This document shows positions 4,128 to 60,246 of a DNA stretch of 64,000 nt, piece by piece. The first letter of the stretch is position 1, and every line of letters starts with the position of its first letter. The DNA is from Rhodospirillales bacterium (GTDB lineage: Bacteria > Pseudomonadota > Alphaproteobacteria > Rhodospirillales > UBA2165). A program made the translations under genes and the position numbers. The DNA is taken from contig JAYGEG010000160.1 in assembly GCA_046582495.1 (NCBI GenBank), positions 11,553 through 75,552 of the forward strand. The letters are read 5' to 3'. The notes under the pieces were generated by a model, which had not been told where the DNA came from, did no database searches, and was given only the letters and a program-made list of their open reading frames with translations.

Positions 4128-5210
4128 CTATGCCTCATCCGAAATGTAATGGCGGTCAAAACGATGCCCCAAACTCGTGAGGATTTCATAGCCAATCGTT
4201 CCAGCTTGATCGGCAATTTGGTCTACAGGATTATTGGGACCAATAAGGTCTACCAATGCGCCCATATGCAACATGTCCTCCGGCACGCCGGTGACATCGA
4301 CAGTTGTTAAATCCATGGAAATCCGTCCTACCACGGGCACCTCAGAATCACCAATATAGACTATCCCCGAATTACTTAAACTGCGCATATATCCATCCGC
4401 ATAGCCGATCGCGAGTGTCGCAATTTTTGTCGGTTTTGAAGCCTGATGAGTGGCACCATAACCAACGGTCTGGAGGGTGTCAACGGACCGCAGCTGCAGG
4501 ATTTTTGCTTGTAAACGAATGACTTGCGCCATTTGGTTAACTTTTCCCGGAGTCGGGTTTACACCATACAAAGAGACCCCGGCGCGGCAAAGATCGAATT
4601 GATAATCCGGGCCTAGAAAGATACCTGAGCTCGCCGCTAAACTGACGTATTTTGCTTTGATGGATGATCGTAGCTCATTGAATAGGGCAACTTGCTCTAC
4701 GTTCTTAGGATGATCTTGATCTTCAGCGCAAGCGAGATGGCTCATCACGAGATCAATGTTGAATTTTGCCAAGTCTGGCGCGCTTTGCTCACATTCCGCT
4801 GGCGTTAATCCAAGACGCGACATGCCGGTGTCAACATGAAGACCAGCAGGCTGATCAGCATGAGCTTGCCATTGCTCAATTTGATCACGGCTGTTGAGGA
4901 TCGGGATGAGGTTATGGGCGAGCAATTCTTTGGCAGTTCCCGGTAAAACTCCATGAAATACGTAAATGCGGGCTTCTGGCAGAATTTGACGCAACTCACT
5001 GCCTTCTTCGAGCGTCGCCACGAAAAAGGTAGAACATCCCGCCGCTTGGAGAGCAGGTGCGGCCTCTTTGACACCAAGCCCATAGGCGTTGGCTTTGACG
5101 ACGGAGGCCAGTCCCGCTGATGGCAATTGGTCGCTGAGGATAGAATAATTTTTCGCGAGAGCACCTAGATCGATGGTCAAGGTCGCGCCGGCTTTTTTTA
5201 AATCGGTCAT
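4128..5210 (-). CDS. alr: Alanine racemase
   Basis: 360 aa with PLP-lysine motif VVKANAYGLG and a conserved C-terminal region (YGxxxxA...VVGRISMD). Confidence 0.9.
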   Translation of the reverse strand: MTDLKKAGATLTIDLGALAKNYSILSDQLPSAGLASVVKANAYGLGVKEAAPALQAAGCSTFFVATLEEGSELRQILPEARIYVFHGVLPGTAKELLAHNLIPILNSRDQIEQWQAHADQPAGLHVDTGMSRLGLTPAECEQSAPDLAKFNIDLVMSHLACAEDQDHPKNVEQVALFNELRSSIKAKYVSLAASSGIFLGPDYQFDLCRAGVSLYGVNPTPGKVNQMAQVIRLQAKILQLRSVDTLQTVGYGATHQASKPTKIATLAIGYADGYMRSLSNSGIVYIGDSEVPVVGRISMDLTTVDVTGVPEDMLHMGALVDLIGPNNPVDQIADQAGTIGYEILTSLGHRFDRHYISDEA

Positions 5211-5220
5211 TTTTAAGTCC

Positions 5221-5320
5221 CCCCCACCTTAATCCTCCCCCTCGGTGGGGGGAGGAGATTTGTGTTTGTAGTTGAAATTCTACCCCTTCCCCCCTTGAGG
5301 GGGAAGGTTAGGATGGGGGG
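5221..5320. repeat. Pair of G/C-homopolymer hairpins (REP-like) between dnaB and alr
   Basis: CCTCCCCC(5234-5241)/GGGGGAGG(5248-5255), with alternative pairing CCCCCACC(5221-5228)/GGTGGGGG(5245-5252). A second hairpin is CCTTCCCCC(5285-5293)/GGGGGAAGG(5299-5307). The spurious ORF 5262..5549 reads it as ...LPLPPLRGKVRMGG. Confidence 0.6.
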
Positions 5321-5366
5321 TAAAATAGGTGCTAATATCTTGCCCATCCGACTACTGACTTATTGG

Positions 5367-6914
5367 TTAATAAGATTCGGTGTGTTGGGTATCGAGATCA
5401 CCAAAGCGCGTATACATGCCATGGAAATGGAGTTTTGCCGTTCCCGTCGGGCCATGACGTTGTTTGCCGATGATCACTTCGGCGACAAAACGATTTCTTT
5501 CGCTGCGTTCTTCCCAATCCGTATATCGTGTCGCAAACTTATCTGGTGATTCTTCGGGGCGCTGAACGGGCTCTCCGCGCTCGTCATAATAGGCTTGGCG
5601 ATAAATAAAGCTTACGACGTCAGCATCCTGCTCAATCGTGCCCGATTCACGAAGATCCGATAATTGAGGCCGCTTATCTTCACGTTGCTCGACCGCGCGC
5701 GACAACTGGGACAAGGCCAATACCGGCACATCCAATTCTTTTGCCAGTGTTTTTAGGCCCCGCGTAATTTCACTGATCTCCTGCACCCGATTGTCGGATC
5801 GGGAAGAGCCTTCCATCAATTGCAGATAATCGACCACAATCAAGCCCAGCCCTTCATTGCGTTTAAGACGGCGGGCGCGGGTTCGCAGCGCGGAAACCGA
5901 GAGGGCCGGTGTATCGTCAATGAAGATGGGCAGCGTATGGAGTTGCTGTGAAGCGACCACCAATTTATCAAACTCATCGTTTGTAAGTGTGCCGCGTCGC
6001 ATTTTATCGGAAGCTATCTCAGCTTGTTCAGACAAAATACGTGACGCCAATTGCTCTGCTGACATTTCGAGAGAGAAAAAACCGACCACGGCACCGTCGG
6101 TGACTTTCTTTTCGCCGCTTTCATCAATTTCAAATTTATAATCGTAAGCGGCGTTAAAAGCGATATTGGTCGCAAGCGCAGTCTTACCCATCGATGGGCG
6201 CGCGGCGAGAATGATTAAATCCGAAGGATGAAGACCTCCCATGATTTGATCGAGGTCTCGCAGGCCCGTGGAAACGCCACTGAGATGGCCATCACGTTTG
6301 TGGGCGATCTCTGCCATTTCGACAGCGGAGACGACGGAAGATTTAAAATCCTGGAAGCCGCCTTCAATTTCGCCAGTCGTTGCAAGATCATACAGCGTCT
6401 GTTCAGCGTATTCGATCTGCTTCATCGCAGGATCGTCAACTTCTGGCGTATGGGCTCGGTTTACCACCTGTTCGCCGAGCTCAATCAATTGGCGCTTGAG
6501 GTGCAAATCATAAATGGTTCGGCCATACTCGGCAGAGTTGATGACGCTGACCATTGAGCCCGCAATTTCTGCGAGATAGCGCGTGCCGCCGACATCGGCG
6601 AGTGAGCCATCTTGCTCGAAGAAAGTGCGAAGCGTGATTGGATCAGCGATCTGCCCGCGTTCGATCAGTTTCGAAGTTGCATCATAGATGTTGCCATGGA
6701 TGGGATCGGCAAAATGCTCGGGTCTTAGGTATCCCGATACCCGGTCATAGGCATTATTATTAGCGAATATGGCACCGAGCAAAGCTTTCTCCGCCTCGAA
6801 GTTATGGGGTGGTGATCTGAAACTCGGCAGGCCTTGCCCGTCATCTTGCCCGGCTTGAATATTTGCTGGATTTTGAACTGCTGTTGCCATGGCAAAGAAA
6901 TTACTCTGATCCAC
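5367..6914 (-). CDS. dnaB: Replicative DNA helicase DnaB
   Basis: 515 aa. Walker A ARPSMGKTA, the DnaB C-terminal RecA-like domain (LIVVDYLQLM ... SQLSRAVEQR) and an N-terminal DnaB domain. Confidence 0.95.
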   Translation of the reverse strand: MDQSNFFAMATAVQNPANIQAGQDDGQGLPSFRSPPHNFEAEKALLGAIFANNNAYDRVSGYLRPEHFADPIHGNIYDATSKLIERGQIADPITLRTFFEQDGSLADVGGTRYLAEIAGSMVSVINSAEYGRTIYDLHLKRQLIELGEQVVNRAHTPEVDDPAMKQIEYAEQTLYDLATTGEIEGGFQDFKSSVVSAVEMAEIAHKRDGHLSGVSTGLRDLDQIMGGLHPSDLIILAARPSMGKTALATNIAFNAAYDYKFEIDESGEKKVTDGAVVGFFSLEMSAEQLASRILSEQAEIASDKMRRGTLTNDEFDKLVVASQQLHTLPIFIDDTPALSVSALRTRARRLKRNEGLGLIVVDYLQLMEGSSRSDNRVQEISEITRGLKTLAKELDVPVLALSQLSRAVEQREDKRPQLSDLRESGTIEQDADVVSFIYRQAYYDERGEPVQRPEESPDKFATRYTDWEERSERNRFVAEVIIGKQRHGPTGTAKLHFHGMYTRFGDLDTQHTESY

Positions 6915-28383: not shown

Positions 28384-29526
28384 TTACGAACCACCGACCT
28401 GAGCATAGTCAGGCGGCGGTATTTTGCCAGCGCGCTTTTTAAATCGCGGATGGAGGAGCAACAGGAACAGCAAAATAAACACAGGCGCGATAATTGAGGC
28501 GTAGAGAAGCGGGACCAATTGCAAATTTTTAGCACTGATATTAATGAGCCCCAAATTAGTAATTTGAAGGCTGACAAATATGACCGAAGCTAATAGGATT
28601 CTTTTCACCTGACCGCGTCTTGAAAAGTCACCTAGCAATAGGCAAACGAGGGCGATTAAAGCAAATCCAAGCGTGTTAATTGGCGTGGTTAAACGCTGGT
28701 GCCCCTCAACTTTAAACTTACCAAAATCTCTGGGGTTTCCGACATCTTCAATTTTTAAATCCAGCAATTCATCGACCATGCGCTCCCGAGCTTCGCGAAA
28801 ACGTTCTTCCGGCTTAGGTGTCACGCTACTCAAATCAAAACTATATCGATCAAAGTATAAAATCGATAACTTATTGGTTTTCTTGTCAATTATTTGACGG
28901 TTTCCATCAAACATTACGACACGAGCGCCTGATGAGGTTTTAACCATCACCCCTTTTTCGGCGATGACGGTTGCCGGCTTATTTTTGTTTCGGCTGTCAT
29001 GTATGAGCAAGCCACGCAATTCAGATTCTCCAGACCGTTCTCGGACAAAAACCGTGATGTGATCGGAGATAACGTTAAATACGCCTTCCTTCAGCAAAAT
29101 ATGAGAAAAACTATAGCGGATATCCCACTGAAGATTTCGAAAAATCTGATAGGATTTTGGTGTGCCATAGAGTGTTAATGCATAGCCAAAAAGCATAGAT
29201 ACCAAGGCAACCAATAGGGCTGGCCGAGCCAATGATATCGGTGACATGCCAGCGGCTCTCAAAACGACCAACTCGCGATCCGAATTGAGACGGCTATAGA
29301 CAAACAATGTTGCGATAAATATCGAAAATGGGATGATGTGGACCAAAAAATTCGGAACTTGAAGCACGGTCAAATACATAAATAGTTTTATGGACAGTCC
29401 GCGGTTTACAATCGAATCTACCGCGCGCACAGACACAAACAGCCAAATCACTCCGGTCATTACGAATCCCACCATAAGAGTGGAAACGACCAGCTGGCGA
29501 GTCAGATATTGATTAATTCGTTTCAT
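28384..29526 (-). CDS. lptF: LPS export ABC transporter permease LptF
   Basis: YjgP/YjgQ family. The conserved start MKRINQYLTRQL is at 29526; the track start at 29589 adds 21 non-conserved residues. Confidence 0.9.
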   Translation of the reverse strand: MKRINQYLTRQLVVSTLMVGFVMTGVIWLFVSVRAVDSIVNRGLSIKLFMYLTVLQVPNFLVHIIPFSIFIATLFVYSRLNSDRELVVLRAAGMSPISLARPALLVALVSMLFGYALTLYGTPKSYQIFRNLQWDIRYSFSHILLKEGVFNVISDHITVFVRERSGESELRGLLIHDSRNKNKPATVIAEKGVMVKTSSGARVVMFDGNRQIIDKKTNKLSILYFDRYSFDLSSVTPKPEERFREARERMVDELLDLKIEDVGNPRDFGKFKVEGHQRLTTPINTLGFALIALVCLLLGDFSRRGQVKRILLASVIFVSLQITNLGLINISAKNLQLVPLLYASIIAPVFILLFLLLLHPRFKKRAGKIPPPDYAQVGGS

Positions 29527-29896
29527 GCGTCCGTGTTCTGAATGTTGAATTGGCGCAGCCGATCCCAATAAATATAGTAGAATCAACAATTAAAGGAATT
29601 ATAGGTTATTTCTAAATTAAGTGCATGCGAATAGCAAATAGTGACTTAAATAGGCCGATTTAAGGCACCGAAATGTCATATCTGGCCATATTTTGGTGCA
29701 TTAGATGGCAAAATTAGCTCATTATACTTATTTTATCCACACAGTTTAAAGAAAATTAGTTTTTATATAACAATAGGTTATAAGATTTTCTGGGCTGCAG
29801 CCAGTCCACTCTAAATTTCATACCGGCTTATTACCCAATTATTACAATTCGACACAAAGTTTTTCATGATTGAAATCACGAGGCTACAATCATTCT

Positions 29897-30071
29897 CTAT
29901 ATTCATAAGTGTTCCCAATAGGGAATGTGATCACTACCCCGGTGATCACCGTATCGAACCAAAATTCGGTACACTGAATTCATCATATTTCTCCCGAGTG
30001 TGATGAATTCATTCCCAGACGTAAAGCCTCCCTGTAAACTCTCCCGGACCTGACAAGGTCCGGATTTTTTT
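29897..30071 (+). ncRNA. Candidate structured trans-acting sRNA (family not recognised)
   Basis: Four consecutive hairpins: 29911-29926, GTGATCAC/GTGATCAC 29927-29949, 29951-29972, and an 11-bp perfect stem TGAATTCATCA/TGATGAATTCA 29975-30011. After a single-stranded stretch comes a canonical intrinsic terminator. CUCCC lies in the hairpin-4 loop (29991-29995), CCUCCC at 30027-30032 and CUCUCCC at 30039-30045. A possible promoter is TTCATG(29863-29868)-16 nt-TACAAT(29885-29890). There is no upstream plus-strand CDS for the terminator to serve. The 5' end is a guess. Confidence 0.55.
30044..30071 (+). terminator. Rho-independent terminator
   Basis: CCGGACC(30044-30050)-TGACAA-GGTCCGG(30057-30063) followed by ATTTTTTTT. 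On the minus strand the 3' flank is GAGAGTTTACAG, which is not U-rich, so the orientation is plus. Confidence 0.85.
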
Positions 30072-31467
30072 ACGAGATGATTTTGCCGGGATTCATAATA
30101 TTATCCGGATCAATGGCCTGTTTGACCGCGCGCATAAGAGAGATAGTTGTCTCTGAAGCGTAATGCGCCAATTCTTCCCGCTTAAAAGAGCCAATACCGT
30201 GTTCGGCACTGATGCTGCCATTCATGTCGACAACCAGATCGTGGACAATGCGATTAAATTCTTCATAGCGCGCCATGAAGTCTTCTTTGGACATATCTGT
30301 GGGTTGGGTCAAATTGTAGTGAATGTTGCCGTCTCCAATATGACCAAACGGGCAGGGACGTATGCCCGGAAGAGCATCAGATACGCGTTTTGAGGCTTCG
30401 GTAATAAAGGCAACAGTCTTGGAAACCGGCACCGAAACATCATGCTTGATGCTGCCGCCTTCACGGGTTTGCGCGGCCGGGATTTCTTCGCGAATTTTCC
30501 AAAGCTCCTGCCGCTGTGCATCGCTTTCGGCAAAAACAGCATCCGAGACGACGCCGTCTTCAAAGGCTTTTTTCAGCACGGTTTCTATTTCGCTGCGTAG
30601 ATCATCATTTTCTCTGGCAGAGGTCAGTTCGATCAATGCGTAAAATGGATGGGTGGCTTCGAACGGATCAATCACACCGGGGATATGTTCAATGCCCAAA
30701 TCCATCCCAATTCTGGGGATCAACTCAAAAGCTGTCAGCCGATCACCGCAGAGCTGCCGGGTGGTCGTGAAAAGTTTCAAGGTGGCTTCCAATTCTGGCA
30801 GCGCTGCCATAACCGTTATGATCGTCCGCGGCGCTGGAAAAAGTTTCAACACGGCCTTGGTGATAATACCAAGGGTACCTTCCGCGCCGATAAAGAGCTG
30901 CTTTAGATCATACCCAGTGTTGTCTTTTCTAAGCGCGCTTAAGCCGTCCCAAATTTCACCATTTGGCAACACAACCTCTAATCCCAAAACCAAGTCCCGC
31001 GTATTTCCATAGCGTAATACGCCCACGCCACCTGCATTGGTCGAGAGGTTGCCGCCAATTCGGCAGCTGCCTTCAGCACCCAAACTTAGTGGAAACAAAC
31101 AGTTTTTCTCTGCCGCGGCATTTTGCAAATCAACCAGAATACAGCCGGTCTCGACGGTCATCGTATTGTTTAGCGGATCAACTTCAATGATTTTGTTGAG
31201 CCGGTCCGTTGCCAGAATAACCCCGCCATTGGCAATCGTGCCGCCGACCAGCCCAGTGCTGCCGCCAACCGCCACAATCGAGGTTTTGCTTTCAGCGCAA
31301 GCGCAGACGACCGCTGAAACCTCTTGCGTGGTCGCTGGCCGCGCAACGATATCAGCTTTGCTTGTTACCAAGCCGCGTTCTTCGTGCAGATAGGGGGCCA
31401 TATCGCTGACGTCTGTGATAACGCCATTTTTGCCGAGGATGGCTGTTAATTTTTCTTCAAGAGACAT
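30070..31467 (-). CDS. FAD-linked oxidase (GlcD / D-2-hydroxyacid dehydrogenase family)
   Basis: FAD-binding PCMH-type domain (VAVGGSTGLVGG..., GAEGSCRIGGNLSTNAGG) and a C-terminal FAD-oxidase domain (SAEHGIG). The ATG at 31467 (MSLEEKL...) is preferred and leaves a 7-nt gap to the upstream tsaC-like gene. Confidence 0.85.
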   Translation of the reverse strand: MSLEEKLTAILGKNGVITDVSDMAPYLHEERGLVTSKADIVARPATTQEVSAVVCACAESKTSIVAVGGSTGLVGGTIANGGVILATDRLNKIIEVDPLNNTMTVETGCILVDLQNAAAEKNCLFPLSLGAEGSCRIGGNLSTNAGGVGVLRYGNTRDLVLGLEVVLPNGEIWDGLSALRKDNTGYDLKQLFIGAEGTLGIITKAVLKLFPAPRTIITVMAALPELEATLKLFTTTRQLCGDRLTAFELIPRIGMDLGIEHIPGVIDPFEATHPFYALIELTSARENDDLRSEIETVLKKAFEDGVVSDAVFAESDAQRQELWKIREEIPAAQTREGGSIKHDVSVPVSKTVAFITEASKRVSDALPGIRPCPFGHIGDGNIHYNLTQPTDMSKEDFMARYEEFNRIVHDLVVDMNGSISAEHGIGSFKREELAHYASETTISLMRAVKQAIDPDNIMNPGKIIS

Positions 31468-33226: not shown

Positions 33227-33712
33227 CTAATCGTGGGCTTTTTCAGCACCTTCGTGCCAATGTTTGGTCGGCTCATTTGAGCCGATTAAAATGAAGGCAA
33301 TCTGACACGGTTCATCGTATGGATTTGCCCAACCATGCATGGTCGCGCGTTGGACCATAACGTCGCCTTGCTCGAAACTTACCTTGTCATCCTCATCCAG
33401 CAACATTTCGCATTTACCGGACATGCAAATTGCATAATCGATGGTATCGGTGCGGTGCATATAAGCTTCTTTGCCCGGCACCAGTTCCAAAATACGAAAT
33501 ATCGACCCTGTTTTGGGCGGCTCAATACCCTGCGGTGTTGAGGTCGGATCTTCACCGTTTACGTCGGCAGGTGTGTCTTCTGTGACCCACAGCAAAGTTT
33601 CAAAGTTGCCGGAACGCAATTGCTGGACATTTGTCGTGACTTCATCGGTTCCAACGATGGCTTTTCCATCATCGCGGTGTGAGGTCACGATACGGCGAAC
33701 ATTAAGCGTCAT
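33227..33712 (-). CDS. Cupin domain protein
   Basis: About 161 aa from the ATG at 33712, which is preceded by GGGGAGA. Cupin-type motifs are HRTDTIDYAICMSGKCEM and GDVMVQRATMHGW. Confidence 0.65.
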   Translation of the reverse strand: MTLNVRRIVTSHRDDGKAIVGTDEVTTNVQQLRSGNFETLLWVTEDTPADVNGEDPTSTPQGIEPPKTGSIFRILELVPGKEAYMHRTDTIDYAICMSGKCEMLLDEDDKVSFEQGDVMVQRATMHGWANPYDEPCQIAFILIGSNEPTKHWHEGAEKAHD

Positions 33713-33870
33713 TGATTTTCTCCCCAAATTAAATTTGTTGCGTCTGTTCCCGAGCATTTAGCAAAAAAATTGCCAAACTGCCACACAATTGGAAAATAAG
33801 GGCGCTATTAATTTTAAAATCTGCCTCTTACCCTGCCGATTGATAATTTTGCATGAGGGGGAACACCTGC

Positions 33871-58589: not shown

Positions 58590-59152
58590 GTAAAGAAGAC
58601 ATACGCATAAATATTCCGAATTTAATAAGCCTTGCAAGATTGCTGTGTGTGCCGCTGACTGTGTGGCTCATTTTGAACAATCAGGTTTTGTATGCTTTTT
58701 GGGTATTTGTGTTTGCCGGCATTAGTGATGCACTAGACGGCTTTATCGCCAAACGATTTAAATTGCAGACCGAACTTGGTGCCTATCTAGACCCGATCGC
58801 CGACAAAGCTTTGCTCGTCAGCATTTTTGTAACTTTGGGTCAAGTCGGGTATCTGGATTCCTGGTTGGTCTTGTTGGTGGTGTTTCGCGATGGGCTGGTA
58901 TTGTGTGGTGCCATTCTTTATCACGTTATTTATCAAAACCTCACCATGCAGCCACTATTGATTAGTAAATTAAATACCACCGCTCAATTTGCGCTGGCGA
59001 CGGCGGTTCTCGGATTGACGGGATACTCGATCGCCGACGGTTTGTTGATTGAAACTTTGGTCTATACTGTGGCTGCGACAACGGTTCTTTCAGGCGCCGC
59101 CTATGTTGGCATCTGGGGAATACGTGCAGCGACTATGGAGCCGGGAGAGTGA
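58586..59152 (+). CDS. CDP-alcohol phosphatidyltransferase family protein
   Basis: 188 aa with the signature DALDGFIAKRF...GAYLDPIADK (D-x2-DG-x2-AR...G-x3-D-x3-D). ATGA overlap with the upstream gene. Confidence 0.88.
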   Translation: MSKEDIRINIPNLISLARLLCVPLTVWLILNNQVLYAFWVFVFAGISDALDGFIAKRFKLQTELGAYLDPIADKALLVSIFVTLGQVGYLDSWLVLLVVFRDGLVLCGAILYHVIYQNLTMQPLLISKLNTTAQFALATAVLGLTGYSIADGLLIETLVYTVAATTVLSGAAYVGIWGIRAATMEPGE

Positions 59153-60246
59153 CTATGGGGATTACCCGAGAGCGACAATTTTGGATTTGGTTGGTGGTCG
59201 TCGTTGTCGCGATTTCTTTTATAGTATTTGTCAGCAGCGTGCTGCTGCCCTTTGTTGCCGGTATGGCTGTTGCGTATTTTCTCGATCCGCTGGCTGATAA
59301 GCTGGAAGAGTGGGGGCTCTCCAGGACGCTCGCGACGACAATCATAACCGTTTTCTTTTTTGCCGCCGTCATTGCGGCACTGATTTTAATCTTTCCGCTC
59401 CTCCAAGGTCAGGTCATTGGATTTTTCCAAAAAATACCGACCTTTATTGAAAATTTTGAGGTCTGGATTGCACCGTTGAAGGAAACACTCTCGGAGCGTA
59501 TTCCATCAGAGAAACTTCAAGAACTGTCTGAAGCTTCAAAATCCTATGGCGGCGCTATCGTCAAATGGTTGGCGGGGCTTCTACAGGGTATTTGGCAGGG
59601 CGGCCTGGCGCTTTTCAATGCGCTTTCCCTCATTTTGATTACGCCGGTTGTGAGTTTCTACCTTCTCAGAGATTGGGATAAAATCGTCTCCAAAGTCGAT
59701 AGCTGGCTGCCTCGTGAGTTTGCACCTTCAATTCGCACAGTCGTTAAGGATATAGACGTAACCATTGCCGGTTTTGTGCGTGGGCAGGGAACGGTGTGTT
59801 TGTTTTTGGCGGTGTTTTACGGCATTGGCCTGACCATCGTCGGTCTGGATTTTGGACTTATGGTTGGCATCACAACCGGGCTGATATCCTTCATTCCTTA
59901 TTTTGGCATGCTGGTGGGTATGGTGACGGCATTGGCCATCGCAGTTGCTCAATTTGGTGAATTGGTGCCGGTTGTATTGGTGCTGATTGTTTTTGGTGCC
60001 GGCCAAATTATTGAATCGATGTTCCTAACGCCAAAATTGGTCGGCGAGAAAGTTGGCCTCCACGCCGTCTGGGTGATCTTTGCCCTAATGGTTGGCGGTG
60101 CGACTGTCGGCTTTACCGGCGTTCTCTTGGCTGTGCCTGTCGCTGCAACAATCGGTGTGCTGGTGCGCTTTTTCCTAGCTCAGTATCTGGCCAGCCCGCT
60201 TTACTCCGGCAACACTGATTCTTCCGACAGCGATGGCCCGTCTTGA
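59149..60246 (+). CDS. AI-2E family transporter (PerM/YhhT-like)
   Basis: 365 aa with about 8 TM segments and a family-typical C-terminal half (ISFIPYFG..., IESMFLTPKLVG). GTGA overlap with the upstream gene. Confidence 0.8.
   Translation: MTMGITRERQFWIWLVVVVVAISFIVFVSSVLLPFVAGMAVAYFLDPLADKLEEWGLSRTLATTIITVFFFAAVIAALILIFPLLQGQVIGFFQKIPTFIENFEVWIAPLKETLSERIPSEKLQELSEASKSYGGAIVKWLAGLLQGIWQGGLALFNALSLILITPVVSFYLLRDWDKIVSKVDSWLPREFAPSIRTVVKDIDVTIAGFVRGQGTVCLFLAVFYGIGLTIVGLDFGLMVGITTGLISFIPYFGMLVGMVTALAIAVAQFGELVPVVLVLIVFGAGQIIESMFLTPKLVGEKVGLHAVWVIFALMVGGATVGFTGVLLAVPVAATIGVLVRFFLAQYLASPLYSGNTDSSDSDGPS

Follow-up and report, generated by a model that had tools for sequence, protein, structure and literature searches.

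The intergenic region between lptF and an oxidase gene

We analysed 64,000 nucleotides (nt) of DNA from a Rhodospirillales bacterium (GenBank assembly GCA_046582495.1, contig JAYGEG010000160.1, positions 11,553 to 75,552; this whole stretch is hereafter called the window). In the window, lptF lies on the minus strand at 28384-29526, and a gene for a GlcD-like FAD-binding oxidase lies on the same strand at 30070-31467. The ATG start of lptF at 29526 is backed by a TIGR04407 match from residue 4 and by the public gene call of 380 amino acids (aa). The two genes are thus separated by 543 bp of non-coding DNA (29527-30069), in which public assemblies have no gene call. An earlier account made from the sequence alone (the sequence-only reading) gave 480 bp for this gap because it used an upstream TTG as the start of lptF. 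On the plus strand of the gap, convergent with the oxidase gene, lies an element (29911-30071) which is very probably a real gene, with a terminator of its own, that encodes a structured small RNA (sRNA).

The plus strand of 29893-30072 folded with -63.4 kcal/mol, compared with -35.7 +/- 3.8 kcal/mol for shuffled sequences (z = -7.38), and none of 200 shuffles was as stable, whereas the z-score of the minus-strand fold was -2.86. Along 29911-30071, four adjacent hairpins (H1 to H4) are followed by a C-rich stretch of ~30 nt predicted to be unpaired and by an intrinsic terminator (Table 1). The loops of the hairpins comprise 4-6 nt. The pentaloop of H2, which was predicted to be fully unpaired, is C-rich (ACCCC in the window and CCCCC in most relatives), and the apical UCCC of H4 was unpaired with a probability of 1.00 in nine of nine close members. 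In distant members the loop of H4 reads UUUCCUCCC or UUCCUCCC. The terminator was detected by a terminator scan, and its U run is present in every complete copy of the element; in the window only, it overlaps the stop codon of the oxidase gene by 2 nt. No paralogue of the element was found in the window.

Much of this anatomy had been described in the sequence-only reading. Its four back-to-back hairpins, its unpaired stretch of ~30 nt and the CUCCC in the loop of the fourth hairpin were all recovered at the places described. The terminator stem was also there, but the run of eight T reported after it consists of seven T preceded by A. As to the two motifs assigned to the unpaired stretch, CCUCCC is present, whereas CUCUCCC (30039-45) turned out to be lineage-specific, absent from distant homologues and half inside the terminator stem.

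Table 1. Features in and around the element, with positions in the window
Feature	Position	Strand	Sequence and remarks
Conserved upstream block	29841-29868	+	TTATTACAATTCGACACAAAGTTTTTCA; ~-70 to -43 relative to the predicted start; almost unchanged among close relatives
Boxes proposed in the sequence-only reading	29863-68 / 29885-90	+	TTCATG / TACAAT; present in the window, not conserved
45-codon open reading frame	29866-30003	+	judged not to be a gene
TTGACA-like box	29870-29878	+	TGACATCA-type (TTGAAATCA in the window); 22 bp upstream of the candidate -10 box
Best candidate -10 hexamer	29898-29903	+	TATATT in 11 of 13 homologues, TAGTAT in 2 of 13; constant distance from H1
H1 hairpin	29911-29926	+	GUUCCC-AAUA-GGGAAU; predicted 5' end of the RNA
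H2 hairpin	29927-29949	+	9-bp stem, GUGAUCACU-ACCCC-GGUGAUCAC; copies of GTGATCAC at 29927-34 and 29942-49
H3 hairpin	29951-29972	+	sequence variable, structure conserved
H4 hairpin	29975-30011	+	long stem, arms include TGAATTCATCA/TGATGAATTCA; apical UUUCUCCCG; loop CUCCC at 29991-29995
Unpaired seed-like region	30012-30043	+	UUCCCAGACGU (30012-22), GCCUCCCUGU (30026-35, motif b), AAAC
Intrinsic terminator	30044-30071	+	CCGGACCU-GACA-AGGUCCGG (30044-30063), then A, then U7 (30065-30071)

Homologues in related marine genomes

A search of GTDB genomes with the FAD-oxidase protein yielded 76 loci, the closest of which belonged to marine metagenome-assembled genomes named 'Rhodospirillaceae bacterium'. 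In the four closest loci (L001-L004; oxidase protein identity 78-83%), BLASTN and nhmmer detected the element with 82-88% identity over ~235 nt, again convergent with the oxidase gene. The copies L077-L084 were added by scanning metagenomes with a 20-mer from H1/H2, and L081 among these is 99% identical to the window. The bias of this selection was removed by fetching the contigs of more distant oxidase homologues through protein anchors. A covariance model (R1) built from nine close sequences then found the element in L089, L092, L093, L094 and L096 (71-124 bits; oxidase identity 70-73%). In total, 13 further distinct versions were obtained from related marine Rhodospirillaceae-like genomes and metagenomes, five of which are distant.

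Model R1 did not find the element in L088, L090, L091 and L095, and nhmmer and covariance-model searches of 72 more distant FAD-oxidase loci gave no element. The regions downstream of the FAD-oxidase gene in L005-L012, L019 and L072 were inspected directly and contained unrelated sequence. The RNA family appears to be confined to one clade of uncultured marine alphaproteobacteria. Viral contigs scanned with the H1/H2 20-mer gave no match, suggesting that the element is not phage-borne.

An aberrant copy was seen in a Logan assembly (L086, 1848-1883), in which the U run after the terminator hairpin is replaced by upstream sequence in reverse complement (GAGAGUUU...). The same locus gave a second weak covariance-model match on the opposite strand. 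This arrangement resembles an artefact of assembly caused by fold-back at the hairpin.

Compensatory changes and sequence conservation

Covariation was measured on a structural alignment of 14 sequences (A7). Standard pairs were formed in 95.4% of the cells, compared with 28-52% when the 3' partners were slid by 1-3 columns. Changes on both sides affected 24 pairs, against 13.0 in column shuffles, and 67 cells, against 20.4; none of 500 shuffles reached either of the observed values. With nine close sequences in the model-fitted alignment A5, RNAalifold returned the same five helices. The sequence-only reading had suggested that its stems be examined for conservation and compensatory change in relatives, and the 24 doubly changed pairs speak in favour of those stems.

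The helices differed in how the changes were distributed. H1 was paired in 100% of the cells; its basal G-U is replaced by G-C in four sequences, and L089 and L096 drop C and G together. H2 was paired in 96.8% of the cells, with three pairs changed on both sides in distant members, and H3 in 99.1% despite a sequence identity of 42%, some of the double changes counted in H3 being due to rows whose register is shifted by one column. Compensations that are independent of the register were found at the loop-proximal pair of H3 (A-U to G-C, the clearest case in this hairpin), at the second pair of H4 (A-U in seven sequences, G-C in five and G-U in one) and at six of the eight terminator pairs, which are changed on both sides across the family. 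Eight pairs of H4 are changed on both sides. The covariation shows the predicted architecture of four hairpins and a terminator.

The aligned helices contained 70 G-U cells and 11 A-C cells, and the paired fraction of 95.4% on the plus strand fell to 86.3% when the helices were read from the minus strand. The excess of G-U over A-C indicates that the plus strand is the transcribed strand. A U run follows the terminator hairpin on the plus strand only. The fold, the covariation, the strand asymmetry and the synteny described below support the stand-alone, structured plus-strand RNA that the sequence-only reading had envisaged.

The RNA core of the window was 84-88% identical to those of L001-L004, whereas the coding DNA of the adjacent oxidase gene was 74-76% identical as a whole and 47-50% identical at third codon positions. 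Conservation of the RNA core above that of the oxidase coding DNA is indicative of purifying selection. Within the RNA, the unpaired segment AACUCCCAGACGUAAAGCCUCCCUGU (AACUCCCAGACGU / AAAGCCUCCCUGU) showed a mean pairwise identity of 89-90% in the ten sequences found without sequence bias, compared with 42% for the stem of H3, 65% for that of H4 and 61% for that of the terminator. The higher conservation of the unpaired stretch than of the helices is the signature of a base-pairing seed.

Retention of the element in different gene contexts

In most lineages the element is divergent from a gene for an acyl-CoA dehydrogenase (ACAD) of 595-599 aa, which sits between the sRNA and lptF (e.g. L003, 4853-6640), and H1 lies 128-223 nt from the ACAD ATG. 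The ACAD gene is intact in L001-L004, L080, L083, L089 and L092-L094, and is internally deleted in L077, L079, L082 and L084, where only N- and C-terminal remnants are left. It is absent from L081, L078, L096 and the window, in which no such gene lies between 29527 and 29840. The RNA element is whole in all of the ACAD-deleted and ACAD-less loci. It is also whole in L089, L092, L093 and L094, where other genes are inserted between the oxidase gene and the element, and other genes separate it from the FAD-oxidase gene in L096 as well. No co-directional gene was present upstream of the element in any locus inspected. Since the element is kept with the ACAD gene intact, deleted or absent, and also when it is separated from the oxidase gene, it appears to be maintained for its own sake and tied to no single neighbour.

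A different arrangement was observed in L088, L090, L091 and L095 (oxidase 71-77% identical), where the oxidase gene is directly followed by lptF across a gap of 300-400 nt that contains neither the sRNA nor the ACAD gene. This suggests that the pair can be lost together.

The putative promoter

The 75 nt upstream of H1 contained no indels in 13 homologues, and RNAalifold found no consensus RNA structure in this region. The TATATT hexamer is followed by six variable nt and then by an invariant UGUUCC. A consensus promoter scan missed this hexamer because it has no -35 partner. From its conservation and spacing, the 5' end is probably located at ~29909-29911, at H1 and ~7 nt after TATATT, which would give an RNA of ~161 nt. 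The sequence-only reading had instead proposed the promoter TTCATG-16-TACAAT and an RNA of ~175 nt. These boxes exist, but the position of TACAAT departs from TAnnnT in seven of the 13 homologues, which read TACAAA, TACATA, TACAGA, AAATGT or TACACG at this place; given the conserved hexamer, the former length is replaced by ~161 nt counted from H1.

Further upstream, nTG(A/T)CAT (29870-76) stands at a fixed position in 13 of 13 homologues. The conserved block TTATTACAATTCGACACAAAGTTTTTCA is still recognisable as TTTTTACAATTTGACACA... in distant members and is kept in genomes without the divergent ACAD gene. A regulator of the sRNA promoter probably binds at this block, and we infer that the promoter would be activator-dependent.

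Other assignments in this region were considered and rejected. A fifth 5' hairpin ('H0', AUGAUUG/CAAUCAU, 29866-29893) seemed to be compensated between the window and L003, but it fails in L004, L002 and L078 and has no RNAalifold consensus; because it is not maintained, 29866-29893 was treated as promoter DNA. An alternative promoter with TACAAT at 29845-50 has lost its final T in the L084/L077 lineage, and this box is not kept in distant members. The upstream blocks were also checked by eye for sigma-54, RpoH, EcfG and Pho-box sites, and their spacing fits none of these.

Relation to known RNA families

An Rfam search of the whole window at the gathering threshold gave no match, in agreement with the sequence-only reading, which had recognised no known family. 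At E<=10, the element region gave chance-level matches only, mostly driven by the terminator. In narrow searches, the SorX family (RF02784) scored 14.8-19.4 bits on the 3' half against a gathering threshold of 46.6, and the best score of RF00519 was 19.0 bits (L093), below its gathering cut-off of 41 bits. The alignments to RF00519 and RF02784 share a module that consists of CCUCCCU(GU), then A(A/G)ACU and then a terminator. Of the known families, alphaR8 and SorX are in our view the nearest relatives or analogues of the element, membership in either family not being established.

The alphaR8 family includes MmgR of Sinorhizobium meliloti, SuhB of Sphingopyxis and SisA-D of Caulobacter, and is represented in Rfam by RF00519 'suhB', a name which we take to come from SuhB-family neighbour genes. 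The RNAs of this family are characterised by a terminator and an internal single-stranded 10-mer, UUUCCUCCCU, downstream of a weak hairpin (PMC12559287), and MmgR is a Hfq-dependent RNA of 77 nt (PMC7143759). Like them, the present RNA is alphaproteobacterial and would be a stand-alone unit in which an unpaired CCUCCCU core is followed by A(A/G)ACU and a Rho-independent terminator, and it is presumed to act by Hfq-dependent base pairing via the C-rich core (PMC12559287, PMC7143759). Its terminator begins 8 nt after CCUCCCUGU, that is, directly after the C-rich core as in alphaR8. Compared with the alphaR8 10-mer, the window has CCUCCCU (7/10) in the unpaired stretch and UUUCUCCC in the loop of H4, and L093 has a small CUCC/GGAG hairpin just before CCUCCCUGU. 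Unlike the alphaR8 RNAs (~77 nt, with 70-80 nt as the defining range), the present RNA would be ~161 nt long, has four covarying hairpins upstream of the module, contains the extra conserved seed part CUCCCAGACGU and occurs as a single copy in the 64-kb window.

The resemblance to SorX of Rhodobacter sphaeroides concerns the same region: the SorX consensus ...ACCUCCCUGUUGGAcc-terminator matches GCCUCCCUGU(U)AAAC-terminator, with a 10-nt identity (CCUCCCUGUU) in L093. SorX is a Hfq-dependent translational repressor of 75 nt that is cut from the 3' untranslated region (UTR) of the mRNA for an OmpR-type regulator (PMC9438474), whereas the present element, with no co-directional gene upstream in any locus, has a putative promoter of its own.

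The ar14/cuckoo RNAs are composed of two to four adjacent hairpins, each with CCUCCUCCC in a loop of 9-27 nt (PMC4615179). The present RNA shares with these RNAs (ar14/cuckoo/CcsR/NfeR1, RF02344) the tandem adjacent hairpins, C-rich motifs resembling an anti-Shine-Dalgarno (anti-SD) sequence and the alphaproteobacterial origin. However, its loops are of 4-6 nt, CCUCCUCCC is absent from 29911-30071 and two of its four hairpins are not C-rich. RF02344 gave no match to the element even at E<=10, and the definition of ar14/cuckoo does not apply.

AbcR RNAs, which in Rhizobiales are ~110 nt long and tandemly duplicated beside a LysR-type regulator, were named in the sequence-only reading as an example of sRNAs that target ribosome-binding sites. 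This comparison survives as an analogy only, the nearest families being alphaR8/MmgR and SorX. AbcR1 forms three hairpins and has two UCCC modules (M1 and M2), one in a loop and one between hairpins, which pair with the SD sequence (PMC4152367). The likeness to AbcR1/AbcR2 (ar15, RF02345) lies in the principle of two separate single-stranded UCCC modules. Unlike AbcR, the present RNA has four hairpins and a terminator, and neither covariance-model nor sequence similarity to RF02345 was found at E<=10.

Proposed mode of action and candidate targets

The predicted transcript combines the features generally expected of a trans-acting sRNA gene, namely a putative unit of its own, a covarying structure, a seed that is both unpaired and conserved, and an intrinsic terminator ending in a U tail. 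We propose that the element encodes a trans-acting sRNA of ~161 nt with an anti-SD seed; taken as a whole with its mechanism, this is the reading we favour, with some confidence but with clear reservations. Transcription would start ~7 nt after TATATT, aided by the putative regulator site upstream. The RNA would begin with hairpin H1 and would display C-rich apical loops on H2 and H4, with H3 as a variable spacer. Its G+C-rich terminator with the U7 tail would be the usual 3' module of the Hfq type. The proposed seed is the unpaired AACUCCCAGACGUAAAGCCUCCCUGUAAAC between H4 and the terminator. Through its (C)CUCCC(U) motifs, and with assistance from the UCCC loops on H2 and H4, it would base-pair with the GGGAG-type SD sequences of a subset of mRNAs. 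This pairing would block ribosome binding, as in the alphaR8/MmgR, SorX, AbcR and ar14 RNAs. C-rich pairing modules have precedents in the UCCC of AbcR1 (PMC4152367), the CCUCCUCCC loops of cuckoo/ar14 (PMC4615179) and the UUUCCUCCCU plus terminator of alphaR8 (PMC12559287).

Around the locus, a strong GGGAG-type SD sequence is found in only ~3 of 18 called genes, those for a Memo/AMMECR1 protein, a luciferase-like protein and a cupin. Since such sequences are rare among the neighbours, a CUCCC seed would be selective. When the whole window and 239 candidate translation starts were scanned for duplexes, the best candidate was a gene for an AI-2E transporter (PF01594) at 59155, with CCGGGAGAGU 6 nt before the AUG. 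The region of this start (59137-59157, plus strand) reads CCGGGAGAGUGACUAUG and contains a 10-nt complement to 30037-30046 of the sRNA, matching ACUCUCCCGG. Distant members do not conserve this segment of the sRNA, one half of which belongs to the terminator stem. A further candidate is the cupin gene, four genes away (window ~33712-33730, minus strand; L003 ~833; L004 ~824), the SD sequence of which, GGGAGAA(A/U) (CUCGGGAGAAU in L003), is complementary to the apical loop region of H4 in several lineages. This complementarity may simply reflect a strong SD sequence. Both genes are weak target leads.

In ~740 kb searched, exact or one-mismatch complements of both conserved seed parts were found only on the element's own antisense strand, and the seed showed no conserved complementarity to the ACAD translation start. 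No match to Hfq, ProQ or CsrA was obtained by tblastn in the 64-kb window, a result which is uninformative.

A shared sequence, A(C/G)AGGGAG(G/C)CUUUAGCAAAUAA, was noticed on the minus strand of two related loci, L089 (~725-736) and L058 (~792-803), and 13 of 14 positions agree with the complement of seed part b (ACAGGGAGGCUUUA). In L089 it is located ~100 nt upstream of the start of a Fer4-protein gene.

Evaluation of the proposal and of alternative explanations

Several observations weigh against the proposal of an anti-SD sRNA or against the strength of its evidence. The TTGACA-like box is too far from the -10 box, at 22 bp, for a canonical -35 element, which leaves a promoter without a proper -35. 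Alignment A7 was fitted to the model, and the invariance of H1/H2 in the eight copies L077-L084 is by construction, as these were selected with the H1/H2 20-mer. UCCC occurs five times in the RNA, compared with 2.5 +/- 1.1 expected from its composition, and 31 of 1000 shuffles reached five, so that the excess is modest. In thermodynamic ensembles, CCUCCCUG was paired with the 3' arm of H1 in seven of nine close sequences (unpaired probability 0.07-0.34), which may leave motif b partly masked. The RNA has a single GGGA, located in the 3' arm of H1, which can pair either with GUUCCC of H1 or with UCCCUGU of the seed (CCUCCCUGU). Of these two pairings RNAalifold picks H1, and the L077 lineage has deleted the competing part of the seed. 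The deletion in this lineage (L077/L079/L082) is of 14 nt and removes motif b, the rest of the RNA being kept. Among the translation starts in the ~740 kb, none was conspicuous for an extended complementarity, the best cases being short SD matches. Finally, we infer transcription, the 5' end, Hfq binding, the anti-SD action and all of the targets from sequence.

The RNA might also be a 5'-extended and diverged member of alphaR8 (MmgR/SuhB/Sis), in which two alphaR8-like C-rich modules have been fused and which would have the same anti-SD mode and a role in carbon metabolism. This idea refines the proposal of an anti-SD sRNA rather than competing with it, and we consider it possible but doubtful. 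Sub-threshold matches to RF00519 recur in the window (12.1 bits), L089 (15.1 bits) and L093 (19.0 bits), covering the full model (1-77) and lying on the 3' half, and the consensus of this family, GUUUcCUCCCU-AgACUU-terminator, can be aligned with GCCUCCCUGU-AAACU-terminator. In L089 and L096 the loop of H4, UUUCCUCCC, agrees with nine of the ten positions of the alphaR8 10-mer as defined in PMC12559287, and a gene for an inositol monophosphatase (SuhB-family, PF00459) lies two genes away. These scores are, however, far under the cut-off of 41 and fall among chance-level matches driven by the terminator. Moreover, the window lacks the exact 10-mer UUUCCUCCCU, the RNA is twice as long, and its second motif is in a hairpin loop and not in a single-stranded linker; the comparison was made via the Rfam model and the published definition.

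If the repeated C-rich motifs served to titrate an RNA-binding protein or G/A-rich partner RNAs, the sRNA would be a decoy or sponge that does not block ribosome-binding sites directly. Such a function would be in line with the display of several similar C-rich motifs in loops and unpaired regions and with the sequence conservation of H1 and H2, which exceeds the needs of pairing alone. It also has a parallel in the alphaR8-type RNAs of Caulobacter, which pair with the G/A-rich loop of the sRNA CrfA (PMC12559287). The number of motifs is not conserved, however, since one lineage has deleted motif b and distant members lack motif c, and the one long conserved unpaired stretch resembles a seed rather than an array of repeats. 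Moreover, no bacterial protein that recognises C-rich UCCC motifs is known from this group, which counts against a sponge, and we judge this function to be quite unlikely. A wider scenario, speculative and in our opinion rather improbable, is that the RNA is a fused two-seed descendant of alphaR8 that has co-evolved with the divergent long-chain ACAD in uncultured mesopelagic Rhodospirillales and couples the fatty-acid/carbon status, sensed at the shared upstream region of fixed spacing, to the translation of a GGGAG-SD regulon, or else that it is a multi-site sponge and not a repressor.

It is very unlikely that the element is not an independent RNA gene but the structured 3' UTR or terminator region of the minus-strand mRNA from the convergent FAD-oxidase gene, or regulatory DNA of the ACAD gene or lptF. 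Its position at the FAD-oxidase stop codon in the window, the DNA-like character of the upstream 75 nt (fixed spacing and no RNA structure) and its usual place next to the ACAD gene could be explained in this manner. On the other hand, both the G-U/A-C asymmetry and the z-scores favour the plus strand, the hairpin has no trailing U run on the minus strand, other genes lie between the element and the FAD-oxidase gene in L089, L092, L093, L094 and L096, and the element persists without the ACAD gene. Compensatory changes in five helices would be unexpected for protein-binding DNA. A small protein, encoded by the 45-codon reading frame or another short one, is effectively refuted. The 45-codon frame is open in the window and partly open (~40 codons) in L004 and L084, but it has early stops in L003 and L077/L082, has lost its ATG in L002, L001 and L078, and contains a frame-shifting indel between the window and L004. 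It has no SD sequence upstream, no family match and no public gene call, and the substitutions follow base pairs and not codons. The frame is broken or without ATG in most homologues; its conservation as a protein, which the sequence-only reading had named as a result that would refute the RNA, was not borne out.

The element represents a new, previously uncatalogued sRNA family of an ordinary and well-known kind of regulator. Regulation by C-rich anti-SD sRNAs is textbook knowledge for both Alphaproteobacteria and Firmicutes, and this concept is unchanged by the family. The family adds a well-supported sRNA to abundant uncultured marine alphaproteobacteria in which almost no riboregulators are known, and the covariance model and the 14 sequences can be used for mining metatranscriptomes. 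The family also hints at a greater age and modularity of the seed module CCUCCCU of the alphaR8/SorX type than would be expected from the current Rfam families.

Other conserved or structured sequences in the window

A block of ~85 nt upstream of lptF (29562-29646, read in minus-strand sense; 36-120 nt upstream of the gene) is conserved in all relatives, whereas its flanks are not. The block contains ATTTGCTATTC and, in most relatives, a perfect TATAAT; the equivalent in L003 is 6664-6748. This block probably serves the lptF-lptG-lptD-surA-pdxA-rsmA operon as its promoter or 5' UTR.

The leader of the alanine racemase gene (4128-5210, assigned by Pfam) is also highly structured. On the minus strand of 5211-5330, nested G/C-rich hairpins (CCUUCCCCCUCAAGGGGGGAAGG, UCCUCCCCCCACCGAGGGGGAGGA and GGUGGGGGGG) end just before the AUG, and the leader folded with -61.3 kcal/mol (z = -4.3). 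It could be a leader that sequesters the ribosome-binding site or an element resembling repetitive extragenic palindromes.

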